Counted from the first letter of the whole stretch, positions 26,718 through 49,080 are shown. The stretch: DNA of 63,358 bases, filler included, from 6 parts of 6 records of this genome joined end to end with filler, not necessarily neighbours in it, one strand, 5' to 3'. Translations and numbers: made by a program. The notes: generated from the letters alone by a model not told the origin.

Positions 26718-29700
26718 TTAACGATGAGAACGTCTGTAGGTGACCAGATACTCCGGATATGCACGCCCTGTTGGCAAGACAGAGCAATGGTTGCAGTACG
26801 GTCAACTATCCACTCGCAAACACGACATATCACCCGATGGATATGGCTCTAGATGTAGAAGCATCTCGTTGGCTGCAGTGTTCGCACAAGGCCTCTTGAC
26901 ACGTACCATTCTCGTAGACAACATACACTTTAGATCCATTCGTGGTGCCCGTGACCGTGTCGTACCTTCGTCCGTTTTCGCCAGCAACAGTTGGTGGGAA
27001 GCGCAGCTCACTGTCAGGCTTGAGCTCGACCGCATCACCAACCAGCAGCTTGGTAAGCATAAAACACTGCTCACCTGTTTGTTAAAAAACATTCGGTTCA
27101 GACTCAGGCCCAGAATGACGCAGATTCATTCCCGAAGTCATGGGAGCAAGTGAACAAGGACGACTGCTGCGCTGCAAATGGAATAATCTCTGTCTGGAAC
27201 GAAACAACTAGCACGTACCGTTGGAGCGTTTGTAACTGTAGTCATGGGAGTAGGAAGCGTTCTCTGCAAAGTAAAGTGCGACTCCCCACATACCTGACTT
27301 ACAATACTGCATCATGAAACCGTCTTGGACATCTTTGTATATCATCGCTGGGTCTGTGCCCCCGGAGCTTCTGTCACGTGGATTTCCAGTGCCATGCCAG
27401 ACAGAGGCCTCCAAAGGCATGCGCTTGTTGACCTTTGTCATTCGCTCTCTCCGCAGGCAGTAGTAGTCCCACAGGGCTAAATTCTGGATGCGCTGCAAAC
27501 GCACGACGTGCGTCACTTGCTTGGACTTCATCGTATCCAAAAAGCGGTCCGCGACCTGCTTGAACTCAACTGAAGCTCGATTCACAGAAACAAGCACGCA
27601 GTTGTTTGCCTGCGGCAATCCTGTCCAACTATCAGGAGGAGCAAACTCGGACACTCTGTGTTCGGTGCGCCGCATATTGCGTGTTATTTTAGTTGCTTTG
27701 TTGACCTGCTTCGGTGCAGACCGATCACGTAGGACAGCGATGTAGTCGTGGCCACGACTTTGGAAAGAGCAACCAGCAAATTTTGACTGATACGCCTGTT
27801 CAAGAACAGTAATTATCGAGTCATCGTCATACGCAATCCACTTGCCATCGACATCGCACTCCCATGTTACTACGCTACTGTGTGGACCACCTGAGTTTAC
27901 GGCTAGCTCGGACGGTCTGGTCTGCAACTTAAATAGCTTCTTAGAGACATCCATAGAAAGGTGCTTAAACACCATCACCTCGTCGTATGCCACTCTACCA
28001 TTGCAACGGGGGCAGAGGATCGACAGGCAGCCAAGCTGTAAGATCTCGTCATCTTGCAGAGTCTGTTCGACGTGTCGACTGAAGCACTCGTTGCAAAGAA
28101 AATGTGCCTCGCGTGGCAAGGCTCTCACCGACCTACATTCGATACCTTCTGCGAGACCAAATACGCCCGCGCAGTTCTCACAACGCCGCGTGAGAAAAGC
28201 ATCCAAGGGTCGTGGGAGAGCTGTGTCCATTGCTGTGCCAGACCATCTGAATCCTCGGACGCTATGAGTCCTAGCAGGCTGGATTCGGTTTAAATTCTCC
28301 GGCCCGAGCGCCACCTCTCCAGCAAACGCTTCGTTTATCCAGTATCGTTTATCCAGATGAACACGGATGCGTACGCTGCCGTCATCAGCGACAGACGATC
28401 CAACGACTATCCCAGTTGCGCCACGGTATACATGTCCTTGTTTTGTGTTCACCTTAACCTTATCCAGCAGCTGGAACAGGTCACTGCAACCTATCAAGCG
28501 CCTTGGACACTGCAAGAAAAAGCTCTTTTGTACGGACGAAAGGACGGGTGTGAAGGACTCAGTGCTGCCGTCGTCATCCCAGACAACTTCTAGTGGCTCG
28601 GCGCAATCTCCGATCGATGTGATCTCCAGTGCGTTGGTGGGCTCAGCTTGTTGTCCTGTTCTCAGGCCAGTTGCTCGTCCCCATCTACCGACCGGCACAT
28701 AATCATCTGGTCCAGGTATTGCCGAAACAAGCATGCCAGGTTGCGTCACCACGATGTGGCTGAATGTTGTCAAGTCAACCCAACCGTCTACTCGCACGAC
28801 TTTGGTGCCATGTCCATCCTCACCTTGCCCAATGCTTTCAGTCTTGCTCGAATCAGCCAGAAGAGTCCGCAGCTGCAAGGCCACGTACTGCTCGGACAGC
28901 GCACGCGAATCGTGCTCCGAATATTCTATCCACCCGTCTGATCCTCCTCGCTCCCACTTGAGCCTGTCCTGAGCGGCCGCTTCTAGGTGTTTCATCTTTG
29001 CGCGGCTCTCAGCTGCTGCTTGCGCAGCATTCCTAGCAATGCGACGCTCGCGTGCTTCGTTCTCTGCGTTTGTTTTGGTGGCGTTCTCCTCCTGCGCCAG
29101 TGCCAGAGCTGTTGCTTTGGCGGCATCTTGCTGATGTTGCGCTTCGCGTGCCTCGTTCTCTGCCTTTGCCAACTTGTGCTGAGCTGCAAGAGCCTTCTGA
29201 CGCGAAGCTTCTGCTGCCTCACTCTGCTGTGTGGCCAGAAGACGCAGCGTGGCTGCTTCGTCTGCTGCCACGGCAGCCTTTTGCATCGCAACTTGCTTGC
29301 GATCGTGTAAATTCATACGCAACTGCTCGAGATGCTCTTGTTCATGCAGCAGTCGTTGGCGCTCAGCCTGTGTTGCAGCTTTCGTATCTGCAAGCGCAGC
29401 TTGCGCCGCCTGCTCCGCCTGCAACTTGGCCTCCGCCTCTACACGTTCTTGTTCCGCAATCTCTTGCTCGTGCTGGGCGGCTTGTGCTCTCTGGAGTGCA
29501 GCTTCCATCTCAGCATGCTGGTGCTCTGCTGCAGCACGTTGTAGCTCTGCCTCTACTGTTGCAGCTTCAGCCGCCTGCCGCGCAACTTCTTGACGACGTG
29601 TGTTTGTGAGCGCCATTTGAGCCAAGTGCTTTCCCTCTGCTGATATCCTCAGTGCCGCCATCTGTCTGGCCTGTTCCTTTTCTTCAATCGCAGCCTTAGC

Positions 29701-31699
29701 ATCTCGCTCTATTTGCAGCCTTGCCTCTGCTTCTAACCGCTCCTGCTCTGCCTTGTCTCGCTCGTGTTGTGCAGCTTGAGCTTTATGGAACGCAGCTTCT
29801 CTCTTTGCACGTTGCTCCTGTGCCATCGCATGTTGAGCCTCGGCCGCAGCGGCTGCAATCTCAGCCTCCCGTTGCGCGTGCTTTGTTTGTTCATCGGCAG
29901 CAGCTGCTTTCAGCTCTGATAACTTGTGTTCATCAGCTAGATGTTGCAGCTTCATTGTGGCAAGCTGCTCTTGCAACGCATGCAACTCCAGCTTTTCATG
30001 CGCATCCTCCTGCTCTGCCTTGATCGATGCTTGCTCCTCTCGCAGACGCTTCTGCTCACGTCTCCTCTCCATCTCTCCTGGCGCGTGCCGGTAGCAACTG
30101 TCGCACACGCGTTTAGTGACTGGTGGTTCCTGCTCTCGGAGCTTATCCACAGGTGTCATCGGACCCCGGCCATGAACAGGCACCCAACGGTTGAGTTCCA
30201 TAGTCTTGCTTGAACAATTGTGACAGACAATCCACCCACAGTACCGACAAGTGTGTTGCCAGGTTCCGAAGATGAGCCCGAACTGGCGTTCGCATTGCAT
30301 GCAGGCCTCGACTTCTGCAGAGTTGATAAACCTGGGATGTTCGCGTGCGCGCAGACATTCCACCTCCTTCAAAGTTCCGAAGGTTTCTCGCAACTGTGAG
30401 TGCGTGTCACTAACGGTGCCAGCGGAGCTCGCTGTGTGTGGAGACTGCTCTGGTTCCTCTGGATCGATTCGTGCTGTAGCAGTTGAACGCTCATCCGCAC
30501 CATCGATGATGGGGCTTCTCGCACTGTACTTTTCCTGGATCCGTGAGAGAAGGTCTTCCTCGTTGCCGCGCCACTCCGTTAATAGCTGGTCAACATCACG
30601 GAGCTTCCGCGGACTGTGCAGCGCATATATGCGGGTGATTTCCTGGCGAATAGTGTCAAGTGGTGCCTCTCGGCCCCGAAGCTCGTGCAGCTCGTGACAT
30701 GCATGGAGCTCAGCGAATCGGTGGAAGTCGACCGTTCCTGATGCGGTACACTGCTCCAGTATACTGGCATCACCCGGCTGTTGCACGACGAGATCCAGCT
30801 CTAGCATCTTCAGTACAGCATCGAAGATACCCCTTTCCACTAAGCCCGATGACGGGTGTTCTTCATATTCCTGACAAGCTGCAACAACCATAGGCAGCAT
30901 TGTGATCATTTGTAGATTTGTCGATGCTGCTGATCGAAGACTAGGACGAGGACTGGCGAGGAAGTCAGATGCAACAGTGTTGCACAGCTCCGCCACCAGA
31001 TCCAATAGCACCTGCTGCTCCTCCGACTGGAACGCAATCAGATGAACCTCTCGCAGTCCCTCGAACGCACTATCGCGCACAACTTCCACGCCGATACGCA
31101 AGACATGTTCCAGCGTACGCATTCCACGGAAACTCCCAGCTGAAAGCAGGGAGAACCCCAGGTACTGTATACCAGCCCCGGCCGCCACAGACATCGCTGA
31201 GCGGTAGGCATCGCACAGCAGGCTGTCGCCATCCTCAGGCGTTTGGTCCGGCCGTAGGCGTCGGTAGTTTGGCCCAACAGTGTGGACGACGTTCCCCGCA
31301 TGTAGCCGTCCGAAGCGCCCGGGGCCGGTCAGCACAGAGCCCCCGGTCTGGATTCGCTCTGCACAACCACGCAAGCCACTGTGTGCGAGCACCGGCAGCG
31401 CAAGGCGAGCTGCGGCGAGCTCTGGGCCACCCGCCTGGGTGATCGCGCCATCCACGCCGCCACCACCTAATCCGCCGCAGTTCGCGGCATTGACGATGCC
31501 AATGCAATCGCGCGGCCAGTCGGTGCGGTCGCCAAAGTCGAGCACGCTCCCCGCGGAGACGACGAGCTCGCCTGCACCGTGCGCGAGCGCTGCCCGGCGC
31601 AATTCACGCACGCCAGCCGCCTCGGGAACCGCAGGTTGCACCGCGGGCTGCACCTCACGCCAGAGCAGTTCCGGCTCCGGCTCCAACTCCGGCTCCGGC
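26718..31699 (-). CDS. Macrodomain-FYVE-like-coiled coil-WWE-RING-WWE-PARP (mono-ADP-ribosyltransferase type) protein; 5'-partial; exons 31699-27219, 27074-26907, 26767-26718
   Basis: Macro: IVNAAN..GLGGGGVDGAI, VVHTVGPNY. FYVE-like CxxC...HTCRYCGWIVCHNCS. WWE-like KWERGGSDGWIEY and TWECDVDGKWIAYD. RING-like C..C...C...H..C..C...CP.C. PARP: VWHGT, MWGVALYFA. Two GTACGT...CAG introns restore YDTVTG...KVYVVYENGRAYPEYLVTY. Confidence 0.88.
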
Positions 31700-31799
31700 N
31701 NNNNNNNNNNNNNNNNNNNNNNNNNNNNNNNNNNNNNNNNNNNTTAATTAATTAANNNNNNNNNNNNNNNNNNNNNNNNNNNNNNNNNNNNNNNNNNNN
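31700..31799. other. Artificial contig-joining spacer
   Basis: N44-TTAATTAATTAA-N44. Confidence 0.99.
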
Positions 31800-32255
31800 A
31801 TACCCCTGTTTGTAAGTGTGCTTGAATACACGCGATGCATGCGCACGGCGCGCGGCGCGCGCCGGCGCGGCGGCGGCGTTGCGCGCGCGCGATCGCGCGC
31901 GATGCCGCGCTGTACGCTGCCAGCACTGCCGGGTGCCAGTCGCGTGACCTAGCGAAGCGCAGCGCGAGCGACGAGATCGAGCGTGGCGAGCATGATTTGA
32001 TGAGTCAATGATTCCAAGATGGTCCTCGATCCCGCTCCGCCCGCTGCCCCGCCGCCGCCCGGCCGGATACGGACGCGACACGATCAATGATGATATATGC
32101 ACGTGTCGAGGTCTCGAGCTGCAGCTGTTGGGTGAGGCCAAGTCTTCGGTTTGCAAGATCCCTTGTGCGATGTGAGTCACGTCTGGTACACTCACTATGA
32201 CGAAAGCTGCACCTGGGTGGGCACATCAGCAGTGCACAACTTGAGCTCGATAGAT

Positions 32256-34619
32256 ATGACGGAGCTGGGCGTCTCCGCCACCATCCGGCTGCCGAGTTTC
32301 GACTTCAACGAGGACGAGCGACCATCGCGGGGCGGGGCGGCGGCTGACTCGGCATGGGCGAGCAGCTGCAGTGCGGGCGCCGGCGTGGTCGTCGTCGCTG
32401 GTGCTGCCACGCAGCTCGGCTTGCATTTCATTCGGCTGCTCATTGAGAGCAGGGATTTTGGGAGCATCCTCGTGCGTGGCCTCGTGCCGTCAACCCCGAC
32501 CGCAGACAGTGCCATGCCCGATGAACAGCTGCGGAAGGCGCGACGCGCGCTGGATCGATTCTGCGGCGAGGACACCGCGCGACGGGTCGATCTCGTTTCT
32601 GTGCCGTATTTCTCACACGGGTATGCATCCGTGGCAGTAGATAGTACGGTCGGCTCGTCGCTGGATCCGCGGCTGGGAATTAGACCAGGGACGTTGCTGC
32701 AGTCGCAGTGCTTGCAGCGCGCAGCACTGCGGAAGGCAATGACAGGGTGTCTCTACGTAATCTCCTGCTGGGGCAGCGAGCTTCAGCCTGTGTTTCGCAG
32801 CAACGGTGGGGAGCTGGGCGACGGTGACGGTGCTCGAGGCGTCGCAGATGTCGTTGGGGCAGAGTACGGCAGCATCGCGAGCTTGCTCAGTGAGGCCGCA
32901 CGGCAGTCGGCGGTGCATTTCGTGCACGTCTCGGCGATCCTCGGACAGAGTTTCGATTCTGGAAGTGAGCAGCGGGGCGGGATTCGCCGCTGGTGGTCTT
33001 CCTGGTCCCTGTCTGCGCTGTTGTACCGATCGACCAATGAGCAGGCGCTGCTGTGGAAAGAGCGAGCGGAACACTTAGTGCGCCGTGCGGGAGCGCCCGA
33101 GAGCTGTGGGGGGTGTGGCTTGCCATACACAATCATTCGGCTGGCGCCACTGACCCCCAGGATGCGCACTAAGCGCATTGGTTCTGCACTTTTATACAGT
33201 GATGCAATCGCAGTCGGTTCGTCTGCTACGGCAGAGGTGACAATATCTCAGATTGCGGGAAGTACCGCTTGCCGTCGACGCACAGCGATCGGACGCTCTG
33301 CCGACCTAGAACAGCTGCACTGGGGTCCAATCTGGGAGCCACGCCGGCCGCGTCCTGTTTTCGCAGAAGGTGGTGAAGCTATGCTGACAGATCCTGGCTT
33401 GGAGACGAGCGCCAGTGCTGCACTCAAGCTCGACCCTGTTGACGCTGCGCGGGTAGTTCTCTTCTGCATGGGGAACTCGGCTACACTTGGCACGTCGTTT
33501 GAAGTATGTGGTCGTGAAATTGACAACGACGCAGGGTCCGGCAGTTCTATCGATGCAAGAAGTGAAAGCCGGTCGGCAGCTGTCGTGCTTCCCGACCTGC
33601 TTGCCCCGCTGCTGCCTGACGACGAACTGCAGCTGCCAAATAGTGACGACGAGGCGTTCCTTTTATCATCCTCATCCTCACAGCGCACACCGATGTCAAT
33701 GTGGGGGGACACATCTCAAACGTCAAACGATCAAGCAGTGAGCAGCTGCGCAGTGACCGTAGTGCGCGTGGCCCCATGGTCGCGTGTCATTGCCGCAGAG
33801 AAGATTGCACTGATCGACGACAGCAACAACGCGCGTATACCACACCCTTTGGCACGCGACAACGAATGGGAACCGTTTGTCTGCTACACTGTCATGATGC
33901 AACTGGTGTTACCGCTGGTGCAGGCTCAGACGGGTACATCGGCTGTAGATACCCGTGGCCATGTGCCACATTTTCCGGCGGTGACTGCTGATGCATCTGC
34001 CGGCGCTTCTACCAGTGTCGAATGCAAGCCAAGCGGAGAGCTACAGGACTGGTTGGTCTGCTTTCGGTTCACAGATTTTGTGCGGCTGCAAGAGGCACTC
34101 GAAAGGAATATATCGGACCGTCAGCAGCAGCAAGATGCGTGCACGCACCAGCTGCAGCAGGAGCAGCAGCATGTGACGCACTTTTTCATGGATGAGCAGC
34201 AAGAATGGGAGCACGGGACGGCAGCATCGATCAGGGGCTCACCTTTGCGCGGAGAGGCTGCAGCTGCAGCTTCATGTACTGAGTCTCACACTGCTGAGAT
34301 TTTGAAAGGTGATCGAAAGCTCGTGACGGGACTCCGCGCCCTACTTCCTCCATCAAGATGGTTTAAGACCGAGGATGCTGTAGTGCTCGAGCGGAGGGCA
34401 GCACTGCAAGCATATCTAGACTTGGCCCTGCAAGCTAAGGTCTCGGATAGAATCACGGAACCTGTCTGTTTTTCGACCAGCGTCGGTGCTGCTGTTTCTC
34501 ACGTCGCTGCTAGTCCTGGTGATGCTGATGTGCATTGCTCTGGAGACCTAGTTCAGAGATGGGTGAGTACTGCATTTGCTAGATGTGCAAGCGTGAGGGC
34601 AAGTTCAGCCGATACATAG
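32256..34619 (+). CDS. Atypical SDR/NAD(P)-binding Rossmann-like domain fused to a C-terminal PX domain; 3' exon structure uncertain
   Basis: Rossmann-like: VVVAGAATQLG, VRGLV, HFVHVSA, WKERAEHLVR...GLPYTIIR, DAARV, GTSFEV. PX-like: YTV...WLVCFRFTDFVRLQEAL...LPPSRWF...LERRAALQAYL. The first in-frame ATG is at 32256. Donor-like sites near 34440 and 34563 suggest further splicing. Confidence 0.65.
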   Translation: MTELGVSATIRLPSFDFNEDERPSRGGAAADSAWASSCSAGAGVVVVAGAATQLGLHFIRLLIESRDFGSILVRGLVPSTPTADSAMPDEQLRKARRALDRFCGEDTARRVDLVSVPYFSHGYASVAVDSTVGSSLDPRLGIRPGTLLQSQCLQRAALRKAMTGCLYVISCWGSELQPVFRSNGGELGDGDGARGVADVVGAEYGSIASLLSEAARQSAVHFVHVSAILGQSFDSGSEQRGGIRRWWSSWSLSALLYRSTNEQALLWKERAEHLVRRAGAPESCGGCGLPYTIIRLAPLTPRMRTKRIGSALLYSDAIAVGSSATAEVTISQIAGSTACRRRTAIGRSADLEQLHWGPIWEPRRPRPVFAEGGEAMLTDPGLETSASAALKLDPVDAARVVLFCMGNSATLGTSFEVCGREIDNDAGSGSSIDARSESRSAAVVLPDLLAPLLPDDELQLPNSDDEAFLLSSSSSQRTPMSMWGDTSQTSNDQAVSSCAVTVVRVAPWSRVIAAEKIALIDDSNNARIPHPLARDNEWEPFVCYTVMMQLVLPLVQAQTGTSAVDTRGHVPHFPAVTADASAGASTSVECKPSGELQDWLVCFRFTDFVRLQEALERNISDRQQQQDACTHQLQQEQQHVTHFFMDEQQEWEHGTAASIRGSPLRGEAAAAASCTESHTAEILKGDRKLVTGLRALLPPSRWFKTEDAVVLERRAALQAYLDLALQAKVSDRITEPVCFSTSVGAAVSHVAASPGDADVHCSGDLVQRWVSTAFARCASVRASSADT

Positions 34620-34735
34620 GGGGGCTCGCAGTACCAGCCGTGGTACTTGAAATGGGTCTGTAATTCTCACGCAGAGACTGCTCACTCGCCGCGTGTCGGT
34701 CCATTCCATGTACACGATCTAGAAGCTTGCTCGAC

Positions 34736-37700
34736 TCAGCACAAGCGTTCCCTTATCTCGACATGGTTTGCCGGGAAGTAACCTAGATGCTCTGCTTGGC
34801 TGTAATCCGTGCCGATATGTCCACGCAGCCACGGCTCGTCACCCTCCACGCCCTCGACCACCACCAGCTGCTGACCCAACCGGAACGAGAGCTGCGTCTC
34901 GCGATCTTCTGCTGCGAAGTCGCGCGTCGATGTCGCACACCAGAACTTGTGGCGTGGCGTCACCTCAGGAGAAAGGGTGTGATACATTCCCGGAGGTACG
35001 TCATAACCGCCGTCCGGGTAACCTGCACCGATGAAGGTTCCAATCGGTGCAGGTGCGGACCACAGTGCTCCGTCGTCGCCCTGTTTCCAGAAGCCCTTGT
35101 CTTGCCAGATCTGGCGCGCCTTTCGTAAACTGCGTGGCTGGAGCAGTGCCCGGTGGACGACGCGATAGTCAGGAAACTGCGGCGGCACAATCAATCCTGA
35201 GCCATCGACGGCTGGTTTTTCTGTCGTCACGACATGGCCAATGCACGCGTAGTCGTCCGAGGGCGGCACCGCCTCCCAGACGTAAATTCGAGTTTTGACC
35301 TTCTTCTTCTTCACCCAAACCAACTTCAGCTTCGCAGGGCGCGCCAACAATTCCGGGTGATCGGCGCTGCAGATCAGCAATTCGCTGCCAGCAACTGGTG
35401 GCTCGTGACCAGTCGTAGCCAAGTCACCAAAGAAGACTCCACCTTCTGGTAGCTGTGGGCGCCAAATTGAAGACTCGTCGTCAGCGCCTGACTTGGTGGA
35501 GTCCCAGACTTTTGAGAACTCGTTGGAAAAACCAAAGCCTGGATCTACTATCGCCATCGAGTCAAACTTGGCCTTCGACGCTCGCTCGATGTCAGCTGCG
35601 GACTGGTCATCGAGCGGATTGATGAAAAATTCGTCAGACTTAAGAGTGTAGAAGGTTTCGTGTGGTGGGGTGTGCCGCTGTGCTGCAGCCATCATGCCCT
35701 CGGCGTTTGTCCTCCAGATCGCACCAGCGCGCCCGCCGCTGCCGGCATCGTTCCAGATCTGCGTGACCTCTTCCGTCACCGGCTTGACCCATGCCCTGGG
35801 TATGCAGCGGATGGACTCAACCGGCGGGTCCTCCGGAGTCGTCGTGCATACAACTCCAAGACTGACAAACCGTTTGGACGGAGGGACTGGTTTCCAGCAA
35901 TACAACTCCTCCTTGCCGGTCTGTTTGTTCCATTGTTGGTGGAATCGTTTCGGGTGAGGCATATAGCGCGCCAGCACGTCCTTGATGTGCTCCGAGGTGC
36001 GACCGATCCCAGTGGCCTTGGTATCGCGAATTCGTAGCACAGCACATCCAGACTCCTTCAGCGGCGCCCTGTCGCCCCCAGTGGCGTAGTAACCGACGCA
36101 GGCGGTCTGCGCATGAGAATGATCTCCCGACGACTCTGCTCCACCCTCAGAAGGGCGCCAGATACTTACGAGCGTCCGAGCGCCAGTGCCCTCGCTCGTC
36201 CAAACTCGCTTGAAGTCGCCGCTCGAGTCGATGGACTTGACCTTGACCTTGAAACCGCGCACGGCTTCTTCCGCAATCTCAACAGTCACCTCTTCGGACG
36301 CAAGGGCCGCGTTAAGCTCAGGGATCTGGTCCTGAGGAACATCCACCTCCGACGACATTGTTGAAGCGGCGTCGGGTGCTGCGTCGAAGAGTGCTAGGAT
36401 GTCGTCTTCGTCACCATTTTCGTAGAAACCGCTTTTAAAGTCGTAAAAGCTGAGGAACCCATCGCTGTCACTATCGATGGAGCGAACCACGGCGTGAACC
36501 TGTTCGACAGAAAGCTCGAGCCCTAGCCATTTCGAGGCGGAGTAGAGCTCTGAGCATGTCATTGCTCCATCTCCAAGCTTGTTGAATATCTGATAAGCCT
36601 CCTTGATGAACAGGCCTTTGGCCTTAATCAATTGCCGCAGCCGGTACCGCAGGGCCTTCAGCTCCAAGAATTCGTAGATGTCAGATGTATTTATGATCTG
36701 TGCCACCGGGCTGCTCTGCCACTTGCTCTGGGCTCGCCGCCTGCCTTGCAAGACCAGCTGAAACCAGTCGGCGCGTTCTCCACATGGTGTACCTTGCAGC
36801 GATCGGATGACATAGTTACGTTCCTGCTCGGTGAAGCCTGTCTGGGAATCGATGAAACGGAAGCAATTGTGGACGATCTCTGTCTGATACTTCGATTTCG
36901 CGACCGTAAATCCGGAAGACTTCTCGATGATGCCACCGCGACCAGTTGGTGAGACCGTATGCAGCGCAATCGCGGCAGATGAATCGGGAAGCAACGGTCT
37001 TTTTTGTCGCAAATGCATGACACCCCTCAGCGTTTCCGCTTCAGCGAGGCTCAGAGCCACGAAATGTCTTCCATCCTCAATCCTTAAGAATGATTGCTGC
37101 TCCATCATCAGCTTGATCAACTCGAACCCCATTTCCTTGCCAGCTTCCAGGTTCACAAGGACCTGTCTTGCCGCCTTTTTCCATGCCCGCTCGCGCTCGG
37201 CACGCTGAGGATTCGCATCATTCAGAACATCTGCTAGCACGTCAGGGACCCCACCAATGCTGGCGCCACTGCTGCGCTGCTGTTCCTTGTCCTGCTTTTG
37301 CCGCATCAGCATCGCCATAGGGCTGTTCCCTCCCATTTCAATTTCGACTGCCTTCTTGACCCGAGCAGGCTCTGCAAGGCCGTCAGAAGCGCTTGGGATG
37401 CCGGCCATGATCTCACGAACCAAACTATCGCGTGTACCCGCAACATCAACACCATTTGCACGCAACAGCTCGACCAGCTCACTGGAACTCAACGCGCCAG
37501 AATTGTTGGTGTCGAATAGGTCAAAAACACGCTTTAGCTGCGCAGTCTGCGACTCGCTCAGGGCCACATTCTCACTTCCAGAGCTTGCAGACAACAAGGT
37601 TGGGTCCGGCACGTATTCAAGCAGCATAATCACGTTCTTCAAACGTCGTTTGGCTCCACTCAGTGACCAGTGCGCTTTAAAGTAGTTCTGTGACATGTAC

Positions 37701-40700
37701 ATGTAGTTGGGGAATTTCAGTGTCTTGGCTGTATGGCCAGTCACTGTGCCCAGACCCTTGACAGCGACTTCAAACTCTGAGCTCGGATAGAAGTTCTGAG
37801 GTCCTGCTTTTAATGCCCCACCCTGCTCCATGATAATTGGTGGTTGCCGCAAACCATCCAATTTCCAACTCTGCACGTGCTCGTCATCACGAACATACTT
37901 GGCCTTCATTGGTTCTTCAACCTCGGCCTCCACCTCCAGCTCTTGCTCTTGCTCCTGCTCTTGCTCTTGCTCTTGCTCCTGCTCCTGCTCTTGCTCCTGC
38001 TCCTGCTCTTGCTCGCCACCGAAGGCCTTCTCCTTCGCCACACCGTCTGGCCCTGTACCATCAGCATCGCTACCAGCAGTCTGCTTCTCCGCAGTACTGA
38101 CGAGGCGTTTTATTTCTGATGCAATTGCATCCTCATCTGGATGTTGGACGAACCCTTCTGCTTTTTTTTCGGCAACCATGTTCCCAATCTTCTCAGCGAA
38201 GCCCTCGGCACTTGGGATTGAGTTTTCTACAGCAAAGTCCACCGGTTCACGGAAGACGTTGATGCAGCTGTATGTGAAGTCGTCGCATTGCGCTGTGCCA
38301 ACCGTCTCGCGATGCTCCATTAAGTGGCGGTAGGCTGCCTTGCGCCAGACATTCTTGACACTCTGTTCGCACAGCAAGTTGAATTGCACTTTCTCTGAAC
38401 GCATTCCATTGACTACGAGCCAAGCACACACATCAGTTATCACGCGTTTATGCTGTTGATGAGGCGACAGCGCGTTAAACAGCCTCTGGAGCGTCTCTGG
38501 AGTCTTTCCTTCACCCCGTGCAACTTGAGTCTTGATTAGCTTATTCACCTCAGGGGTGATGTACAAGTGGATCGTCTGCCCCTGCCCAATGCCCCGCATT
38601 CTATAGGTCCCTTGTGCGTAATCTCGAAATGTCATATCTTTTCCGAGTGTGCACACTGCTTTTGCGTTCAGAACCTGTTTGATGTCCATACCCGTCGTGT
38701 GACACTGGTCGTAGAAAGTAAAACGCTTGCCCCACGGCACTCCACACTGCTCGAGTTTCATCACTTTCATGCCGTCGCGCAGCAGGATCATCTTGCGATC
38801 CAGCTCGTCCAGATACACAGCCCCGTCCATCATGGGCAGGCCGTGGTCGAGCAAATACTTCGCCACTTGGAAGTTTGTCAACCCAGTAATTAACGCGCCT
38901 GTGTCAATCAATGCATGATAGCTGCCAGCGGCAATCTTGTCTAGCATTCTCAGAGGAGTCCAGTCGCTACTCAACACTTCGTATGTCATAAAGTCTGGGT
39001 GAGAGAGGACATGCATGACTTTAGCATCATCGCCTTCTGCATAGTTGCAAGGCTTCAGCTCAACTGGCAAGAGATCACTTGGAGTTCCTGAGAAGCCGTA
39101 CCGGGCACCAAACACTAGGTCACCACCGATCTCCTGGCCGTTGGCAGTCAGGCGGGTCTCCTGAAACTCCATGGTCTCCGGGAAGATTAGCTCGTACAAA
39201 TACTCCTGGATCAAGTGTGGCTGCATTTTGAAGAGTGCATACAAAGGCTCACGATGCTGAGGATCTGCTAGGTCGATTAGCTGCAGCGGTAGCACGTTGT
39301 TCCGATCCTTTTCTTCCTGCGTCATATTACGTTCGTCCAACAAAACGACTGCATCTTTGTTGTGATTATCAAGGTACTCGGACTGCTGGCGTGCTGCCAC
39401 ACCTCGAACCCGTCCACCCGCAAGAGCAACCCAGCGCGCGAACTTGTGCCACGATTCTCGCTTGTTGTACGGTCCGGTCTCAGACTGCAGGTCTTCTTGT
39501 AGCTTCCGCATCAAGGCAACGAAGTCGTCAACCCGCATGCCTTCGAATCGATATGACAGAATTGAAAGTCCAATAATGATGTCGGGGTGAGAAAATTCAC
39601 TTGCTTCACTAGGCACATCCTTTCCAATAAATGGCACAGCAAGAACAGTGCGCGAGCGTGGCATCCTCGGATGTGTCCTTTGCGACCTGACAATATCTTC
39701 AGCGCTAAGTAAGCCATAGCTTACGCGATTGATTTTGCTGATGATGAACGGTAGAAGTGCAGTGAGCCAGTCACGACTGATGTTCAGCATTTTGAAGTCC
39801 TCATCAGAGCAGCGCTCATGAACAATCTCCGTGACTTTTGAACTTCGGCCTTGCATCAAGTATTCATATAGTATATCCTCCGTGAGGCCCGGATCTTTGC
39901 AGCGCTTTTGCATCAACCAGATCAGGATCCATTTGGTCAGCAACGGACGCAACTCAGCATCATAGAATTCACGGCTTAGAATGTGAATGTGCGGTGTCAG
40001 CTGCATGTTTTTCTCTTGGCAACCTTTCGCTATGGTTTCGCTGAGGGTGTTGAGCACAGCCACAGCTTTGCGCTCGCCAAGGTCCACAGTCATACGTTTT
40101 TCTGTATAATAGAGCATTGCATCAAAAAGTACAAACGGTACTTGCCAGCGGAGGCCCAATGCCGAGCGGTTGGTGGTCAAGTCCAGAGGTTTCTTGTCAC
40201 CGAGTGGCCAGTTCAGCTCACTCCGAAGTGGGTGTAGGATCATGTCAACTTCATCCAAAAGCAACACGCCCGTCTGAAACACGTCCAAAATTTTGGTTGC
40301 AAACTCACACTGAGTCCTCATATCTTTCAAGTCTGCCTGGTCATATTCCCTTGCTGTCCTCGCGTCTGCCAGACCAAGCTTTTTTGTGAAGCCACCAAAC
40401 AGACTGGTGGACTGGGCTCCATCTTCCTTGTCTGCGATCGACTCATAGTCCAAGATGCTCAACATTTCGATAATTTTGATGACAAATGATTTAACTGCTG
40501 TTGGAGTTGAACAAACTACCGCGCGCTTGTCGCGAGCTCTGATGAGCTTGTTGTACAGCTCTGGCGTTGTTCTTGTGCGGCGTTCAAATGTGAACGTGTA
40601 CACTGACTTGATGGTTATAGCCGCAAAGGCCGCCCGCATTACTCCACGAGACATATCAAGGAGTGCTCCTGGTACTACCTGTGTCACCAGGCGATCGCCA

Positions 40701-43700
40701 TCTGCAAATGCAAGAGCTAAAAGCGGCGCGACAACGGTAGTCTTGCCTGCGCCCATAATCATCTGATGGCACAAGGACTTGCCGTTCTCAGCTGCTGACA
40801 TAAATTTTCGAACGAGCTCGTACTGTTGCTTGCGCAAAATGAAGCCGATCATAAATTCAAAAATTATGAACTTGGGGTCGTAGTGCAGTCTGCCGCTCGT
40901 GTCAGTGTGCACGCAGTGCCTCTGAGTCGTCAAAAATGTGGCCAGTGTTCCAGCAGTGAGTAAAATGTCTTGGAAGAGTATTTCTGGGTCCTCCCCACCG
41001 CTCAGTGGCAAGTTCTGGATGGACTTGATAATCTTTTTCGTCATCCCTTGGCAACGCAAGGCATGCCCAAGCCTGCACACTGCCAACAATACGCCCACGA
41101 CAAGATCCTGAATAGTCTGAATGGAATTGGGCGTCAAAGATGGGTTCATGTCTTCCAAATCTTGGTCGCCGGAAGAGCTCAACAGCAGGCCAATCAACAG
41201 CTCAAAGTCGATAGTGGGCTCGTCGCCACTCTCCTCGCCCAGCAAAAATGCCTGTTGCTGCCGCAAGATGATTTCGGCCGAGCCACCCAGTGCTATAGTG
41301 CTATTGGCTAAAGCTGTGCAATGGTCAAGAGCTGCTGCGATATACTCGCGATCGTGCGCAACCAGTTCGTCAAGGCCTTGCTCCAACTTTTGTAGACTAG
41401 AAACGGCCACATCAACATGCGGCCCTGGCTCGGCCACGATGCGCCGGATATCAGCATCGAGCATATACTTCATTTTGGGAGTCCGACTCGCGTTTTCTTT
41501 TTCAGCGAAAAACTTAGTGTCATTAGTCAGACGATCATTCATCTGTTTCGCGACGTGTGATTGAGCTGATTGGTGCTTTGTGACATTGAACGGAAGCTTG
41601 GCATCAATGGGTTTCAGTCCTCGGTCTACTTGGGTGAGAGTTACACAGTATCGGTCAAGACCAATTGGAGCTAGCACATCCGAAGCGTGGGCATCAACCT
41701 CCCTTTTGGTCAACCCAGCAGCAGGGCCTGCCTGACTCGCGCATCGAAAGTTGCGCAAGAAGTGGTGGGTCCTCGCAAAATCAGGCACACGCGGACAAAC
41801 AGCTGACCTATCGACCTTCTTGAGTGTGTTGGCGCCCGGCATGATAAAAATCGGCGGCGAGAACCTGTGACTTGCGTGGTCCTTGTCATCGCTGAACAAA
41901 TGCCAATCGGTCTTCGGCCCCGCGTACGCCTCAAGGTCATTAATGTCACCGGCACGCTCCTGTATACATGTCACAACGCTGTCCAGAAACTGACCTCTAG
42001 CTTTCTTCGATCCCATGAGCGCCCCAAGTCCACCGCCCGATTCCTCGACATATGGTGGCGCAGAAGCAGTTAGACCAGGGCTGCTATCCATTGCACGTAA
42101 AATTGCAATCAGCAATCCAGACTGTGTGTCGCCCTCTGGTAGAAGCCGGAGCAAAACAGACCCCAAGCGCGCTGGTGCTTCTTGCACAGACAGCTGGCAG
42201 GGCAAACACCCAGTCAGCAGCTCGTAGAAGAACAGGAAGCCAAGCCCATCAACTGTGCTTGTCAAAGTCAACCCTCCGTCGATCCACTTGTGCAGCAGAG
42301 TTGCAACGTGTCCCGATGTCCACGTCTCCGGGTCCTTCAACGGCCGGCGGTATGCCTGGAGTTTCGCCTTGTCAGTTACACCTGCTGTGGATGTCAAAAG
42401 ACTCGACCTGGCGGACTCGTCCAAAATTGCACTGTCAAAATGCAAACCCTGAGTACCACAGTGTTTCGGGGGGGCGGGGTACTGGACTGGCGCAAAAGTC
42501 TGGGTGTCAGTCTGAGCCAAAGACTTGGCAAAAGCCTCAAGGTACGCCTGCCGGTTGACAAGATGGAGTGGTTTCCTTTCATCAGGAACCTGGTAGATCA
42601 GATCGAACTCCTCCCTGTGCGTCAGTCGACATGCCGCACGAACGTGCTGACGAACAGCCACGTACATGCGAAGCTCAGTTTCCACATTCCAAACACAGGG
42701 CATTGCATCTTCACATCCCATAGTCACCAAGGACATTTTTAGCCTGCACGCGCAGGCGTCCGGGTGCGCGTCGTATTCAACCTGGGCAATCTGCTTCCAA
42801 ATTTGGCTTTCCTCGCCAGAAAGTTTAGTATCGCTCAGGCACGAATCGGCCAACTTAAATGCTGAGCCATACGATCCGGTAAACAGCCGCCAAACCATGA
42901 GATACATTGCTGATGCCAGCGTGGATGCAATCAAGTAAGTACCGGATAAATGAATCGGATACAGGTAATGGCGGACGTCACCGAGATTACTCAGCCAGTC
43001 CTGATCAGCTCTCTCCGTCAACACTGCGCCTTCAAATCGAACGGGCTTCGTCCCAGCAGGGACAAGAATGCTAAACTCATTCGCGGAGTTTTCGAGGAGT
43101 AAACTTGTTGGCAAACCATCCAATAAGTGTATCAGCAGAGGCGAACGGACGTCAGAAACGAACATACCGTTGTGGTCATTAGAATACAACCGAACTTCGC
43201 CGTTCTGTTCCTGGACAGAAAATGACAGCTGAAGGCGGGGCAGCTCAATCAAATCAACAGAGACGGCTGCTGCCCCCGGCTGTGAAGTACTCCACACCAG
43301 AATATGCGAAAAGTCTTCCAGTCGGAGCAGCAGCTTGCGCAACTGACTGCTGACCAGCCCGGAGTCTGGGCCCGACGATAACAGGTTTAGCAGTGTCAGA
43401 TTTCGTGTGCTGCTATCAATCTGGAAATCGTAAGCATCTTCCATGGTGACAGCAACTCGTGTAATCCTACTGGACGCCTGCGAGTTGCACATGCCAGACA
43501 TGTCAGGCTCGCTAGCACTCAGCAATTCCACCGTGATGATGGTCGTATTCACTGCGCCTTTACGCTTGTGTGGCAACGGATATCCAATCATGTCGTCAGC
43601 GTCATCCTGCCAGAACTCATAGTCACTCAGCAAAGCATCGGGCAAAATGCCGCGAAGAAAACGACGAGGTATGTACGTCTGAATGCCGAATGCAGACGTT

Positions 43701-46700
43701 ACATTCCTAGTCAGCGTAAGGGTGTGTTCGCGTTGCCAGGTCAACGCTGGATTGCTTATGACGTTGCCATCCACGTCTTTCACAACTTCCATCATACTAC
43801 CGGAATAGCTTCCAACCTGGTTGCCCAGTACAAATGGGTTCGGGGGCATATCATGCAAGCAGTTGACCGTACTAGAAGAAAATATTAGCTGCCTTTGCCA
43901 GCGCCGACCATACTCCACAATGTTGTACACGTGTACTGCTGGTGGGTCACGAATGACAACCAGTTCATGTAGTGGTTCATCCTGGTTCATCGGCGTGCCG
44001 TCGTTCGGGTCCTTCTCGAGCAAGAAAAATCCAGCAAGTCGCACAACATTGGCAGCCGAACCATCCTGAGGCTGAATGCCCAGGCGCATGCTATGTTGAT
44101 ACGGCTCAAGCCATGAGCTGAGCTGATCTGCCACCCATCTTTCACCGGACTTCAGGCCGCTTGGAAACGGCCTTGTGCAGTCGCTCAGCGGTCTTCCAAT
44201 AGCCATACCTGACTCTGACTTCGCAGGGCACCACGGTTCCCACCAGTGCACATCGTGACGTCGCCCGACCAGTCGCAGCCAAGTTCGGTTTTCTGTCTTT
44301 CGGACCGCAGCACATTGAATGGCAAACGATCCGGACTTTCCAAAGATCTCCTCAAAATCTTGGTGCTGAGATATCTGTGTAGGAAGCACCTGCATCGATT
44401 GCTTTCTCAGTGTAAACGTGCCGAGCTGCACATTGATCTCAGTCTCAACTTCTTGCGTCGTCATGAACACCAGCCAATCCTCATAACTTTCAAACTCCGG
44501 AGTCGGCTTTTTCTGTCGCGCCTCAATCTCCGTGTCCGGCTGAAAGCGGCCCGCGTAGCCTGGCTCTGGCGAACTTTGCCAGTGGCGCGGCGCCAAGTGT
44601 GCTGTGCTCAGCCCGGTGCCCTCATCTTTTTCGGCCTCTTGAATGTCAGTCATGGTCAGGGCGCGTTCGATTGCCTCCATCACGGCGTCACACTCTGATG
44701 GGTGCAATGTTAGCCATGCTAAGCATTTATTCTTGTGCCTCTGAAATAGATCGAACACTTCAGTCTGGTCTATTCCGAGGCCAGTCCCCAGCCCTTCGTC
44801 AGCGTGATCGGTACGTGATCCTGTGCCGTCGACAGCATCCATATCGAACTTGTAATTGTTGTGAAGGAACATCTGAGCTGTTAGAAGCGTCTGCACCGCT
44901 GTCTGGTCCAGGGTCAATTCTGTTACATTCTTCATCATAAACGCCAAATGCGTGTGAAGAATTGCTGTTTCCCTGACTAACTTGTCTTTGGTACAGCGTC
45001 TGCACCATCCAGAGACGAGGGGGAAGAAGTCAGACATAAGCCGTGTGCGAATCGTGGATTGGATGTTGCCGATTGACTTCAGGCCATGTGGCTCACACTC
45101 CAGGCCGCGCACAAAAGACCTTGCCGAGCAACCACTGTAATCATCTTGTACCCGCCATGCAGCATGTTCTAGCTGGCACATACAGAAGCCTTCGATGCGC
45201 ACCAGCAGTCGCAAAATGTACAATATATGTGGAGAAGAGTTCCATGAAAACTTTCCCTCGTCCATTTCAACCACGAAAGCAACCATCGCTTCAACAGCCT
45301 CGAGCAAAAGATCCGGGGCATATCTGAGCTCGTTGAACAGTAGCCCACAAGGAGTCGCTAGATGGTCGCGTGTCGACGACGGCACTGTCTGTGGTAGTGG
45401 CTTGTCTGGGTCGCGCTGCCACTCGCCCGGTTCGAAGAGACATGCATCCAATACAACCTGCAATTCATCCGAGGCAAGTGCAGTAATTCTCATCTGATCG
45501 CTGAAGAATTGCATCGCCAACGGGATTCGAAGATATGGTGCTGTTAGGTATTGCAGCAGCAGTTCGCTGTTTCGCCCTTGTAATCTGCCGTCGAAGGTCG
45601 GAAGGTGTCGCACGTGTAAGATGTCCTCCTCTGTGCGAACATCTTCGTCGACAAGATTACTTGGGTCTCCACCGCTCAGCGGTTTGCGAGGCTTCTTCCT
45701 CAGCCGCGCCATCAAACTACCCTTCTGTTTAGATTCCTCATCTTCTGATACAAATGCTGCACATTTGAGAGGCTGACCAAAACCGTTGACACTGAATTCT
45801 CCGTTACCCCTGTGAGCTTTGCCATTGTGCTGCCACCGCAAGGCAGCATCCCTGGGGCGCCATTTCTTCAACGGTGGCAACGCATCAGATGTTGGCACCA
45901 TGAACGCTTTGCAGAAGTACACGATGTCTCGGAAAAAAGCTAGCTCAGGAAAGCTATCTATCAGGTCGCGCTCCTCGTAGCAAAGATACTTTGCCAGGGT
46001 ATGGTCAATCTCAGCTTCACTCAACCGTCGGGCGAAGCCTGAGGCCAAGCATACTTGATCGAGCAAGCCAACCTCTCCATCACCCATCGTCATTGATTGT
46101 TCAAACCGAAAAATCGTGTGTGCTTCGTCTACAACACTACGCTGCTGGTGGAAGTAATCCAAGATTTGAGTCCGAGCAGTGTTGAGTTCCGGGTTACTGA
46201 AAACGGCTGTCTCCGTTTCCTTTTCGAAATGCCCCATTTGAAAGCCGTAAGGTTGCACTGGGCCATCAGCCTCACCAGAATAGTGCAAGCTTAGCACAGA
46301 CGGGTCGTCACATGCTGCGATGCGCATAATTGCGTCTGACACACAAGCCATGCAGCCCATGACTAGCATCCTTACGGCATCAAACGAGCGTGTCGCGTTC
46401 AGAGAAAGTGATGCTGACGAGTAGTGCCGACATAGCATGTCCAAAGACCGAAGCATGTCGGCTTGATCAACGTACAACAACGGCTGAGCACTCCAGAAGC
46501 ATCGTCTTTCTCGCTCTGGGTGATTATGCGGCAGCGGTAATGGTATCACACGTGTGAACAGGTGCTGAATGAGCGCCACACGTTGCAGATACGAGTTCTG
46601 CACGATGTTTCGTTGGTTGTCCAACCGAGTGCACAACTTAACGCATGTTCTTAAGGCAGCACCCGCTTCGCGATTGTTCGTGACTTTGTCCAGCATGCTG

Positions 46701-48980
46701 GTCAGTTCAACTGGTAGCTCGACCTGAGGTTTCGCACCACCGCCCTCTAGGGCATCAGCGGAGACATCTCTGCGTAACCGTCCAAAGAGCGGAAACTGTG
46801 ACGTTTCTGACGGAAGATTGCCGAGAAGTGAGACGTCTAGCATCGGTGGTTCGTGCGCGTGCACTAGTGAGTCCACTTTGTTTTCGATGCCTTGTGTCGA
46901 CTCATGTATCTTGGACAGTTGCTCGCTGTTGACTTCAGAAAATTCTTCACGGCCTGCTTCTTGCGCATATTTTGCCATCTGGTGACATGCAGTTTCAATC
47001 AACATGGCATCTGATTCTTGAATAGGTGATATATTCAAGTCCTGCTCAGTCCACCTGATCAAAGTCACACGAAGAAACACGGTGACGCATTGAGCCTGTG
47101 ACGGCAGCAGCCCTGACCATATTAGTGTGTGCCGGACACCTTCGAGGACAGCCTGAAAGTGAGATACGTCGCCAGAGCTTGGTGGTGCCGGCCAGTTCCC
47201 AGAAAACACCTTGTGCATCCCTTCATATCCAAACTTGTTCGCCAGCAAGGGTTTTCGGTTCAACATTGGCAAAATCTTTTCGTAAAAGTGCGCTGGCCCA
47301 TTGTTTTTCGATGGGAAGACCAACATGCGGAACGCAACAAACCAGAAAGAGATGCTTGTGACGAGTTCAGAACAGAGATCATATAAGGCCACGGACTGTG
47401 CCTGCAATAGATCTCCAGTGGTGGTGTCCGGGGCCATCGGTAGGTATCCGTGACTTCCCGAGCCCGTGTGGCACGCTGCCAGCGCAAACTTTCCGTCGGG
47501 ACGACGATGTAGCACCAAAGGGAGTGCAACTCCCTTCTGTCCCCCCCTACCACCTGTAGCCCACCCACCGGGTAGGAAGACAGAATCACCCGTGCTCATT
47601 TGCGAGATATGCTGAACCACCGTCTCTAAGTACACACAGAAGCGAGTGCCATCACGACTGTAGGCCGGCAGCCCACTGATAAGACTCATTGAACCCGTCA
47701 GAGCGGATGCAGCCTGCTGCAACGCCGTGCACGCCACGCATGAACCCGCCAGGTGCATCATTGCTTTGCCTACCAGATCCATCGATGCATACAGGTTCGA
47801 TACTCCAGGAGGGAACTTTTCGTGTCGTGCAGCTGTGGTCTCTGTTGAATCGGCCAGAGCATCCAGAAATGCAGGGTGTCGCCAAACTGGTGCAGTAACA
47901 GCTGCAACGCTCGCGCGGACGCCACTTTCCTCATCTATACCGCTATCTTGAGCGGATGGAGGCAGGCCTGCACTTGCACGCACAGCATCGTTGCTGGCCG
48001 CGGCGTTGGCCATTGCTCTGGAGTCTTCATTCGACGCAAGCAAGAAAACGTCTTTCGGGTCAGGTTGCTTTCCACTTGCCTTGGCTGATGCTACCCGCAT
48101 ACTTGCGTCTCGAATGTCCTTGTTGCCCATAGCCTTGGCCGCAGTATCGCGAACAGCCTTATCGCCCAACAACGCGCCTCCGGGCATAGCTGCTACTTGC
48201 CCACTTGCAGACGTATCTACGGCCTTACCAATAAACGTCAGCATTTCTAAGGCGGGTGTTGGGCCGGTGGGTGTGGTGACCACTGCATCGAGGTTCAAAC
48301 AGTCAACTGCTGTTGCTACGAACGCCGGACGAATGAAATGAAAATCTGCCTCATCCCCGTCAAGTTGCCCCAAAGCAGCAACCACATCTGCCATGCAGTG
48401 CACTTCGGTGCTGTTCACCCCTATTAGCATGTGTCCGCGCTTGACTCCCGCTGCAACAGCAGGTGGTGCACCTTTTTCTGCCAAATCAATGAAATGGGCC
48501 ACCACAGGGTACTCCAGGTGCTCCTTGAGGCCGAGGCAAAACCCCAGTCCGGGAACCTTTTTCAACCGAGTCGACAGAGCCTCGCTTCCTTGGAGAGAGC
48601 CGGCCCATGGGTCAGGTGGAGCCGTGGTGCTGGGCTCTCCAAAATAGTTGGACTCATCATCAATCTGCACACCTTCCACTTGTGCGACGCCTGCTGTAAA
48701 GCTGCGACCTCGAACCAAGATGCTCCCAGCACTGATCTCCACGGCATCGTCTTCCGCGTCGGCTGCTGCGAACCATTTCTTGATGCTCATACGCGCCTCT
48801 TTGCTAAGAACGGACTTGTCAACCGGCCGATCGGGTCGCCGCACCACTGGCGGAGGAGGTGGAGCTGGAGCTTGAGCTGGAGCGGAAGCAGCCCTAGTAG
48901 CCAGCTGCTCTGGCTCCGGCCCTGGCTCTGGGCCTGATCTTGGGCTCGGCTGCGGCTCCGGCTCCGGCTCGGGCTCCGGC
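34736..48980 (-). CDS. Giant (>4700 aa) DUF3638/DUF3645 P-loop protein with PDZ, EF-hands, Vps62-like repeats and a C-terminal SH3; 5'-partial
   Basis: Uninterrupted ORF, open to the contig edge (PEPEPE...). HQMIMGAGKTTVVAPLL (Walker A, DUF3638), LLLDEVD, LAVPFIGKDVPSEASEFSHPD (DUF3645), GFSGT, QGTYRMR. EF loops DTNNSGALSSSE and DSDSDGFLSFYD. SIWRP/WKPVPP/IWND repeats. SH3 motifs QLSF..G, WLRG, GYFPANHVE. PDZ-like PGLGFCL...AAGVKRG. Confidence 0.88.
37939..38014 (-). repeat. (Glu-Gln)n coding hexanucleotide repeat
   Basis: (GAGCAR)n encoding about 12 EQ units within the giant ORF. Confidence 0.9.
48930..48980 (-). repeat. Degenerate (GAGCCG)n Glu-Pro coding repeat at contig end; similar tracts at 1-21 and 31670-31699
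   Basis: Repeated GGCTCC/GGCTCG units abutting the spacer, in frame with the giant ORF. Confidence 0.85.
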
Positions 48981-49080
48981 NNNNNNNNNNNNNNNNNNNN
49001 NNNNNNNNNNNNNNNNNNNNNNNNTTAATTAATTAANNNNNNNNNNNNNNNNNNNNNNNNNNNNNNNNNNNNNNNNNNNN
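48981..49080. other. Artificial contig-joining spacer
   Basis: N44-TTAATTAATTAA-N44. Confidence 0.99.

Follow-up and report, generated by a model that had tools for sequence, protein, structure and literature searches.

The 63,358-nucleotide (nt) stretch of DNA analysed here (the window) carries on its minus strand a giant gene whose product is almost certainly a member of the giant DUF3638/DUF3645 protein family. The best overall explanation, to which we assign a probability of roughly 0.5, is a family giant in which a motor scaffold is combined with adaptor domains and a calcium response. The mechanism proposed along with it, that of an ATP-driven, calcium-responsive remodelling or translocating motor, is put forward more tentatively. 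What is new in this protein is its own set of terminal adaptors, while the large uncharacterised family to which it belongs is already known.

The giant reading frame and its ATPase core

The window is composed of six contigs, between which lie five identical 100-nt linkers (44 N, TTAATTAATTAA, 44 N). Genes facing each other across a linker do not adjoin in the genome, and a number of long open reading frames (ORFs) run into linkers. The contig of the giant gene spans 31800-48980. An ORF tool called the gene at 34736..48847 on the minus strand, with a GTG start and 4703 amino acids (aa); we numbered the residues from the Met of the first ATG, at 48790. In-frame translation revealed no stop from the gene up to 48979/48980, which confirmed the uninterrupted frame between 34736 and 48980 given in a preliminary description of this DNA. 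A run of about 4,700 stop-free codons in DNA of 55% GC cannot, we infer, be the product of chance. Single collinear high-scoring segment pairs (HSPs) to homologs covered residues 279-3805 (P0004), 284-3817 (P0031) and 2-3143 (P0002), and HSPs of more than 3,500 residues agree with the earlier view that the giant gene is intronless. The other long ORFs of the window had eukaryotic Pfam matches (armadillo repeats, PI3-kinase, macro-FYVE-WWE-PARP, PX), and a convergent gene ends at 34619, only 116 nt downstream of the giant gene, which together point to compact protist genomic DNA. The giant frame is a genuine gene of a eukaryotic protist.

Both Pfam signatures of the family were found in the core region. 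DUF3638 (PF12340) scored 77.9 bits against a cut-off of 31 (E=9.3e-22), and DUF3645 (PF12359), located C-terminal to it, scored 50.4 bits against a cut-off of 25. Every motif named in the preliminary description (GAGKT, put there at about 40750, DEVD, at about 40250, SGT, QGTYRMR and the EQ repeat) was present where it had been described, and Walker A, DExD, SGT and Q..R.R follow one another in the order of SF2 proteins. The residues of Walker A, DEVD, SGT and Q..R.R fall in columns that are at least 90% conserved in an alignment of 45 sequences, and because of this conservation of the catalytic residues the motor is predicted to be intact and probably active.

An AlphaFold2 model of residues 2560-3560, built from a 24-row alignment, comprised two alpha/beta domains bearing the motifs, with a mean predicted local distance difference test (pLDDT) score of 74.7 and a predicted template modelling (pTM) score of 0.67. 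In the first domain, Walker A follows the first strand and a later strand terminates in DEVD. A helical insertion (about 330 residues) then intervenes before the chain resumes with a strand ending in FSGT. The second domain holds motifs V and VI, followed by a helix of 50 residues. The preliminary description had made its SF2-like core depend on a tandem RecA fold, and this fold was obtained. In a Foldseek search against the PDB, 8 matches reached E<=1e-3, and the matches listed (47 of ranks 1-50) were all SF2-type motors or SecA by description, including MDA5/LGP2/RIG-I/DRH-1/Dicer-2, DNMT5, SWR1/SRCAP/INO80/TIP60, DinG and an XPB-type/Pol II preinitiation complex (PIC) helicase chain. The template modelling (TM) scores were only 0.16-0.29, with SecA the highest (0.29/0.37). 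As modelled, the core is a tandem RecA-like SF2-type ATPase, in line with the earlier claim.

No specific SF2 subfamily can be named for the core, since the ResIII match in Pfam was sub-threshold (E=0.006), a PDB sequence search with residues 1-3700 returned 0 matches and a profile comparison with SecA was null. Kinship with SecA, hinted at by DEVD, GxSGT and the top TM-scores, was rejected, as hhalign against E. coli SecA gave a probability of 0.1 and E=0.45, with a template that was a single sequence and of limited sensitivity. Like SF2 ATPases/helicases (RIG-I-like, SNF2-like, DinG/XPD and ResIII) and the DEAD motor SecA, the core has the motif order I-II-III-VI, a two-RecA fold (here modelled) and a large insertion that separates motif II from motif III; the PPXD of SecA and the Arch domain of XPD are insertions in the first motor domain. 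It differs from the SF2 families and SecA in having no significant sequence match to them and in forming part of a scaffold that exceeds 4,600 aa.

The DUF3645 motif was modelled at low confidence despite its high conservation. The stretches AVPF.GKD.PS..SEF.HPD, the best conserved of the insertion, and HPL.SELNWP, after DEVD, are near-invariant yet had pLDDT below 50. Conserved stretches of such low pLDDT may be ligand- or partner-binding loops.

Conserved body and terminal modules

A word-indexed search with residues 2450-3450 scored 1,492 candidates of 2,576-8,197 aa and yielded 145 homologs at E<=1e-3, and all 120 of those listed carried both PF12340 and PF12359. When the ATPase core was compared exhaustively by phmmer to 1.84 billion cluster representatives (50% identity), there were 7,748 matches at E<=1e-3, 4,631 at <=1e-10 and 1,040 at <=1e-30. 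Many family members are 3,000-7,000 aa long, and many are among the longest proteins of their genomes. The named members come from Prymnesium, Chrysophaeum, Chromera, Cryptosporidium, many oomycetes, Chrysoparadoxa, Ectocarpus and Entosiphon, a span that takes in haptophytes, ochrophyte algae, oomycetes, alveolates (Chromera, Cryptosporidium) and a euglenid. The preliminary description had also placed the family in intracellular bacteria, for which no backing was obtained: a scan of GTDB bacterial and archaeal genomes with two exact peptide patterns, a search of low sensitivity, gave 11 matches, none of which was confirmed as a relative. Its statement that DUF3638 is functionally uncharacterised agrees with literature passages that describe the function as undefined. 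A passage on Tetrahymena, a genus with DUF3638 genes reported in T. thermophila, calls the precise molecular mechanisms of DUF3638 undefined (PMC12615304), another uses DUF3638 as the label of an expanded microsporidian gene family (PMC5423893), and a third mentions it as a polymorphic predicted effector in Plasmodiophora (bioRxiv 10.64898/2026.10.14.759018).

BLAST coverage by the 120 listed homologs was 26-120 per 100-aa bin at residues 301-3700 and 72-75 at 3901-4100; it was 0-2 over residues 1-300 and 0-3 over 4401-4684. The collinear alignment to distant homologs spans residues 279-4376. Judged by these alignments, a body of about 3,700 aa is conserved, with coverage reaching from about residue 300 to 4100, and the terminal adaptor domains vary across the family. 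Accessory domains were counted by hand in the 120 listed homologs, many of which are truncated. An EF-hand was present in 40/120, Vps62 in 7/120 and SH3 in 5/120, and PDZ in 0/120; the SH3 domains in relatives sit at the N-terminus. The other accessory domains were PH, WW, zf-RanBP, thioredoxin-like, UBA, ubiquitin, WWE, MIB_HERC2, SPRY and ankyrin.

The protein resembles the DUF3638/DUF3645 giants of protists and fungi in having both Pfam signatures and the collinear body, about 3,700 aa long. The layout PH-body-ATPase-EF-EF pair-Vps62 is that of a marine cluster with 208 members (P0031/P0308, 4,555-4,617 aa), at least one of which is recorded as a single ORF of 13,668 nt, and in P0323 (4,495 aa) three WW domains precede the order body-ATPase-EF-EF pair-Vps62. 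In P0308 the modules occupy nearly identical positions, at 2627 (DUF3638), 3045 (DUF3645), 3760 (EF), 3994 (EF pair) and 4289 (Vps62), compared to 2638, 3044, 3751, 4062 and 4182, respectively, in the present protein. On the N-terminal side, a PDZ-like domain stands here where relatives have PH, three WW or SH3 domains, and compared to giants of the P0308/P0323 type the protein has in addition a second beta-tripod, a C-terminal SH3 and, in the N-domain, a Leu in place of a His. Two Vps62-like units and the SH3 are kept in the ortholog fragments P0342 (77% identity) and P0343 (67% identity), the latter carrying Pfam SH3_2 (PF07653), and P0341, a fragment of 517 aa from the first beta-tripod on, was reported at 100% identity with two alignment differences. 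By this comparison, the second Vps62-like unit and the C-terminal SH3 are lineage-specific and conserved in orthologs. The accessory set had been called unusual, which stood for the combination of Vps62 with SH3 (0/120 listed homologs, many of them truncated) but not for the EF-hand and Vps62 layout, which recurs in the 208-member cluster. Rather than being a one-off oddity, the protein varies an architectural theme that is common in data from marine protists.

Within the N-terminal body, the most conserved block is residues 1050-1200, and a second helical region was modelled at residues ~1958-2092. Pfam at E<=10 gave no match in residues 301-2500, and an N-body profile of 32 sequences had 0 sequence matches in the PDB at E<=10. 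When a model of residues 1001-2200 (26 rows, pLDDT 76.9) was submitted to Foldseek, one match reached E<=1e-3, human UBR4 in the UBR4-KCMF1-calmodulin complex (9d9z_A), and after it came IFT-A, Raptor, DDB1 and similar solenoid/propeller scaffolds with TM-scores of ~0.1. The modelled region reads as a generic solenoid-plus-beta scaffold.

Distant homologs have an acidic E-x-E-x stretch at the position of the EQ repeat, which marks the EQ run as a trait of the family rather than a private microsatellite. The EF-hands proposed earlier were supported by EF-hand_7 (53.3 bits, cut-off 30), EF-hand_6 (41.1 bits, cut-off 25) and two canonical loops, with calmodulin matches at E=1.7e-9. Likewise, Pfam Vps62 matched two stretches at 47.5-55.7 bits (cut-off 22.1), and the two units align with each other (28% identity, E=8e-10), as expected from the repeated Vps62-like units of the preliminary description. 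Unit 2 matched the beta-tripod of the insecticidal protein GNIP1Aa (6fbm_A residues 328-493) at E=2.2e-7. According to passages by Levine (PMC7613979), the Vps62 label is the product of a spurious alignment, the 'Vps62 domains' of plant VPS13M1/2 are predicted beta-tripods arranged as a tandem pair, and the beta-tripod was first described in a bacterial lysin and has a possible protein-binding role. The beta-tripod of GNIP1Aa is called an additional target-recognition domain in a passage of PMC8624791. The lipid-binding modules claimed earlier were not upheld, since the Vps62-like units match a domain described as serving target or protein recognition; no lipid-binding domain was found in the protein. 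For the beta-tripod, both papers cite Zaitseva et al. 2019. GNIP1Aa is a pore-forming toxin, whereas the host protein here would be a cytoplasmic motor scaffold, and plant VPS13M1/M2 share the tandem beta-tripod pair but form a lipid-transfer bridge, unlike the motor scaffold considered here.

At the C-terminus, Pfam SH3_2, SH3_1 and SH3_9 were below their cut-offs (E=0.0019-0.054). A phmmer search of the PDB with the last 114 aa gave Src SH3 as the best match (E=7.9e-5), and nearly all of the 60 matches listed were SH3 by name, which supports the terminal SH3 of the preliminary description. As for the N-terminal PDZ-like domain, the GLGF loop was found and the remaining support was sub-threshold: PDZ_6 scored 16.6 bits, below the cut-off of 27 (E=0.0067), and the PDB matches of this stretch, 10/10 of them PDZ-bearing proteases, were weak (E=0.04-1.3). 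In P0123, the counterpart of the stretch matched PDZ_6 at E=2.7e-4.

The 5ʹ end of the gene was probably cut by the assembly. The contig breaks within a GGCTCC tandem array (48907-48980), which the open frame reads as PE-rich; coordinate 48980 is an assembly break, not the gene start. The alignment to P0002 starts at query residue 2, which pairs with residue 578 of P0002. When the upstream frame was added, the alignment began at P0002 residue 511, upstream of the query Met, and was weak through that Met, a position occupied by Lys in P0002. This homolog has 510 residues N-terminal to the alignment start, with an SH3 domain at residues 10-76. P0123 has 242 residues before its alignment start, which is located at the query Met, and the gene model of P0122, which of all relatives is the closest (75% identity over residues 300-1250), is without the N-terminal region of the query. 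A tblastn search of the window with P0002 residues 1-600 found only the gene itself and no missing N-terminal piece elsewhere. Given the open frame at the contig edge and the extra N-terminal residues in P0002 and P0123, the two homologs that retain this region, the gene probably lacks its true 5ʹ end, and the length of more than 14 kb is a lower bound. The preliminary description had placed the gene at 34736..48980; the frame is real, and the gene probably extends beyond the 5ʹ coordinate.

Possible function and competing explanations

In the proposed mechanism, the SF2 motor within its large scaffold would act as an ATP-driven remodeller or translocator. The adaptors (PDZ, beta-tripods and SH3) would bring the protein to its partners through peptide or target recognition, and the built-in EF-hands would render its activity or conformation calcium-responsive. 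The preliminary description had likewise proposed a Ca2+-regulated, membrane-targeted machine; both attributes are putative. A protein would be a more probable substrate than a nucleic acid, and the setting may be ubiquitin-linked quality control. A protein substrate is favoured by the accessory domains of the 120 listed homologs, all of them modules for interaction with proteins or ubiquitin, with no nucleic-acid binder among them; the automatic UniRef name of the named homologs is 'ubiquitinyl hydrolase 1'.

Several observations weigh against this explanation. The fold matches are mostly nucleic-acid motors (MDA5, LGP2, RIG-I, SNF2 enzymes and DinG, at TM-scores of 0.16-0.29), so the fold does not favour a protein substrate. 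Pfam detected no ubiquitin-related domain and no peptidase domain in this protein, which leaves the name 'ubiquitinyl hydrolase' with no visible basis here. The match to UBR4 had E=2.8e-4 with a probability of 0.69 and a TM-score of 0.10. Calcium binding, ATPase activity and partner binding are predictions from the sequence, and the true N-terminus of the protein is probably missing. The literature searched, which was available in passages and lay outside subscription journals, yielded no functional study of DUF3638/DUF3645. A search of the literature for giant protist proteins of an EF-hand, helicase-like type brought up unrelated contractile/cytoskeletal giants.

A serious rival, although one we consider clearly less probable than the explanation above, is that the protein is a giant translocase or sensor acting on RNA or DNA, of the RIG-I/MDA5, SNF2 or ZNFX1 type, working for instance in antiviral surveillance or RNA-protein remodelling, in which the adaptors and EF-hands would only control location and activation. 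The nucleic-acid motors among the best Foldseek matches (MDA5, LGP2, RIG-I, Dicer-2, DNMT5, SWR1/INO80/SRCAP and DinG) had probabilities of 0.66-1.0, and an LR..Q motif upstream of Walker A, a motif Ia-like 'VVP..L' read from the sequence and the sub-threshold ResIII match point the same way. However, SF2 fold similarity does not indicate the substrate, the TM-scores were low, and the highest belonged to SecA, a polypeptide motor. Moreover, neither this protein nor the precomputed Pfam annotation of any of the 120 listed homologs showed a nucleic-acid-binding domain.

The name 'ubiquitinyl hydrolase 1', together with the ubiquitin-related accessory domains elsewhere in the family, raises the alternative of a deubiquitinase, in which a cryptic cysteine-protease-like domain in the N-terminal body would be fed or regulated by the ATPase. 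The candidate is the PGGW...YHP region, and we regard this alternative as improbable. A feature search of the ESM Atlas with residues 380-620 returned, below two unnamed bacterial clusters (0.94 and 0.93), YopJ-like (0.76) and ShET2-like (0.75) clusters, which we take to be cysteine-protease-type folds. Both have low recognition value, scores below 0.9 being leads only by the tool's own statement; with residues 300-1250, the Atlas gave only unnamed clusters with scores of at most 0.85. Against a protease, no peptidase Pfam domain was found in the whole protein at E<=0.1 or in residues 301-2500 at E<=10, and the PDB sequence searches with residues 1-3700 and with the 32-sequence N-body profile were empty. 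The family alignment holds no invariant Cys near the motif, and the His of YHP, the sole strongly conserved His of the N-domain, present in 39/41 occupied rows and in 11/14 of a second alignment, is Leu450 here, Leu in P0122 and Tyr in P0123, so that this lineage would be inactive were the His catalytic. The name itself is machine-assigned, and no experiment behind it was found; the deubiquitinase role rests on this automatic name only. The idea of a viral-tegument-like (VTD) deubiquitinase was rejected: passages of PMC9741609 report such domains from Helitrons, insects, bacteria, fungi and protists, with no link to the ATPase considered here.

Far more remote is the possibility that the contig is chimeric, that the gene is dead or that the feature arose in assembly. 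In favour of it, the window was concatenated artificially, a tandem repeat is interrupted by the contig end, and the second beta-tripod with SH3 has no counterpart in the 120 listed giant homologs. Nevertheless, the frame is unbroken over more than 4,700 codons with all catalytic motifs intact, and it is collinear with distant homologs over residues 279-4376. In addition, independent ortholog fragments of 67-77% identity span the entire C-terminal module including SH3, and the fragment at 100% identity covers the region from the first beta-tripod onward.

The gene is a clean representative of its family, with an unbroken frame and intact motor motifs, and its clear module map helps the choice of constructs (ATPase core, EF region, beta-tripods and SH3). 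As the architecture varies a theme common in marine protists, this single gene opens no new question by itself; the family itself deserves study. A much bolder proposal, which we think unlikely to hold, is that the DUF3638/DUF3645 giants form an unrecognised class of calcium-gated SF2 motor-scaffolds in protist protein/ubiquitin quality control, analogous to UBR4-calmodulin (SIFI), with the PDZ, beta-tripods and SH3 re-aiming the machine and the His lost in this lineage. The protein is like the UBR4-KCMF1-calmodulin complex in being a very large solenoid-plus-beta scaffold with a calcium sensor, but the resemblance to UBR4 is generic, no UBR box or E3 module was seen here, and the sensor is built in as EF-hands, whereas the UBR4 complex uses a separate calmodulin. 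UBR4 is not known to have an SF2 motor. If the proposal were true, the giants would carry their own ATP motor and built-in EF-hands, unlike the UBR4-calmodulin type, and in this lineage a PDZ-like domain, two beta-tripods and SH3 would have given the machine a new aim, with loss of the conserved His of an ancestral catalytic-like N-domain.

Feature coordinates and other genes of the window

Coordinates of the giant gene, the modules of its product and the linkers, counted from the first letter of the window
Feature	Position	Strand	Residues and remarks
ORF	34736..48790	-	first ATG 48790 to stop 34738-34736; 4684 aa; collinear with homologs
Open frame upstream of ATG	48791..48980	-	PE/PA-rich low-complexity stretch over GGCTCC tandem array
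PDZ-like domain	48296..48583	-	residues ~70-165, GLGF loop at residue 81 (48550)
Family-conserved N-terminal body	41111..47893	-	residues ~300-2560; from coverage map; no Pfam family
N-domain with family motif PGGW...N.G.G..YHP	47231..47593	-	residues ~400-520
Helical solenoid-like region	44651..45673	-	residues ~1040-1380; from model
Beta-rich region	42941..44593	-	residues ~1400-1950; from model
SF2-type ATPase core	38501..40882	-	residues ~2637-3430; RecA1 with ~330-aa helical insertion (motifs II-III), then RecA2; modelled
Pfam DUF3638	40457..40879	-	residues 2638-2778, includes Walker A
Walker A GAGKT	40739-40753	-	residue 2680
Walker B / motif II DEVD	40244..40255	-	residue 2846; family-invariant columns
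DUF3645 motif	39566..39661	-	residues 3044-3075, within helical insertion
Motif III FSGT	39083..39094	-	residue 3233
Motif VI QGTYRMR (arginine fingers)	38594..38614	-	residue 3393
EQ repeat	37939-38014	-	from residue 3593; hexanucleotide array, 12.7 copies of 6 nt
EF-hand 1	37451..37540	-	canonical loop DTNNSGALSSSE
EF-hand pair	36425..36607	-	second loop DSDSDGFLSFYD canonical; first, NKLGDGAMTCSE, looks degenerate
Vps62-like / beta-tripod unit 1	35702..36223	-	residues ~4190-4363
Vps62-like / beta-tripod unit 2	34991..35527	-	residues ~4422-4600
C-terminal SH3	34748..34921	-	residues ~4624-4681; conserved in P0342, P0343
Linkers	9072-9171, 16432-16531, 31700-31799, 48981-49080, 55837-55936	.	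artificial
Linker at the 5ʹ side of the gene	48981..49080	.	N44-TTAATTAATTAA-N44, joins two contigs

Among the other genes of the window, a GH2/mannosidase-like gene at 16554-20586 (plus strand) is apparently split into ORFs at 16554-18371, 18402-19673 and 19603-20586, which suggests short introns or frameshifts, in contrast to the unbroken 14-kb gene. An ORF of 1,492 aa at 27208-31686 (minus strand) combines Macro, FYVE, WWE and PARP catalytic domains; it stops 13 nt short of the contig edge, and its 5ʹ end may be cut too. At 12545-16381 (minus strand), an ORF of 1,278 aa carries PH, SAM, Ras-binding, PIK and PI3/PI4-kinase domains, of which the SAM domain looked unusual on a PI3-kinase. The ORF at 3-4931 (plus strand), of 1,642 aa and open at the window start, has armadillo repeats and a choline-transporter-like membrane domain. 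A weak TIR_2 match (E=2e-4) was found in the ORF at 56753-58954 (minus strand). Finally, the ORF of 1,357 aa at 59061-63134 (minus strand) had a weak TNFR/ELAPOR-like match and, near its C-terminus, a faint match to the SH3 domain of P0002 (E=0.7).

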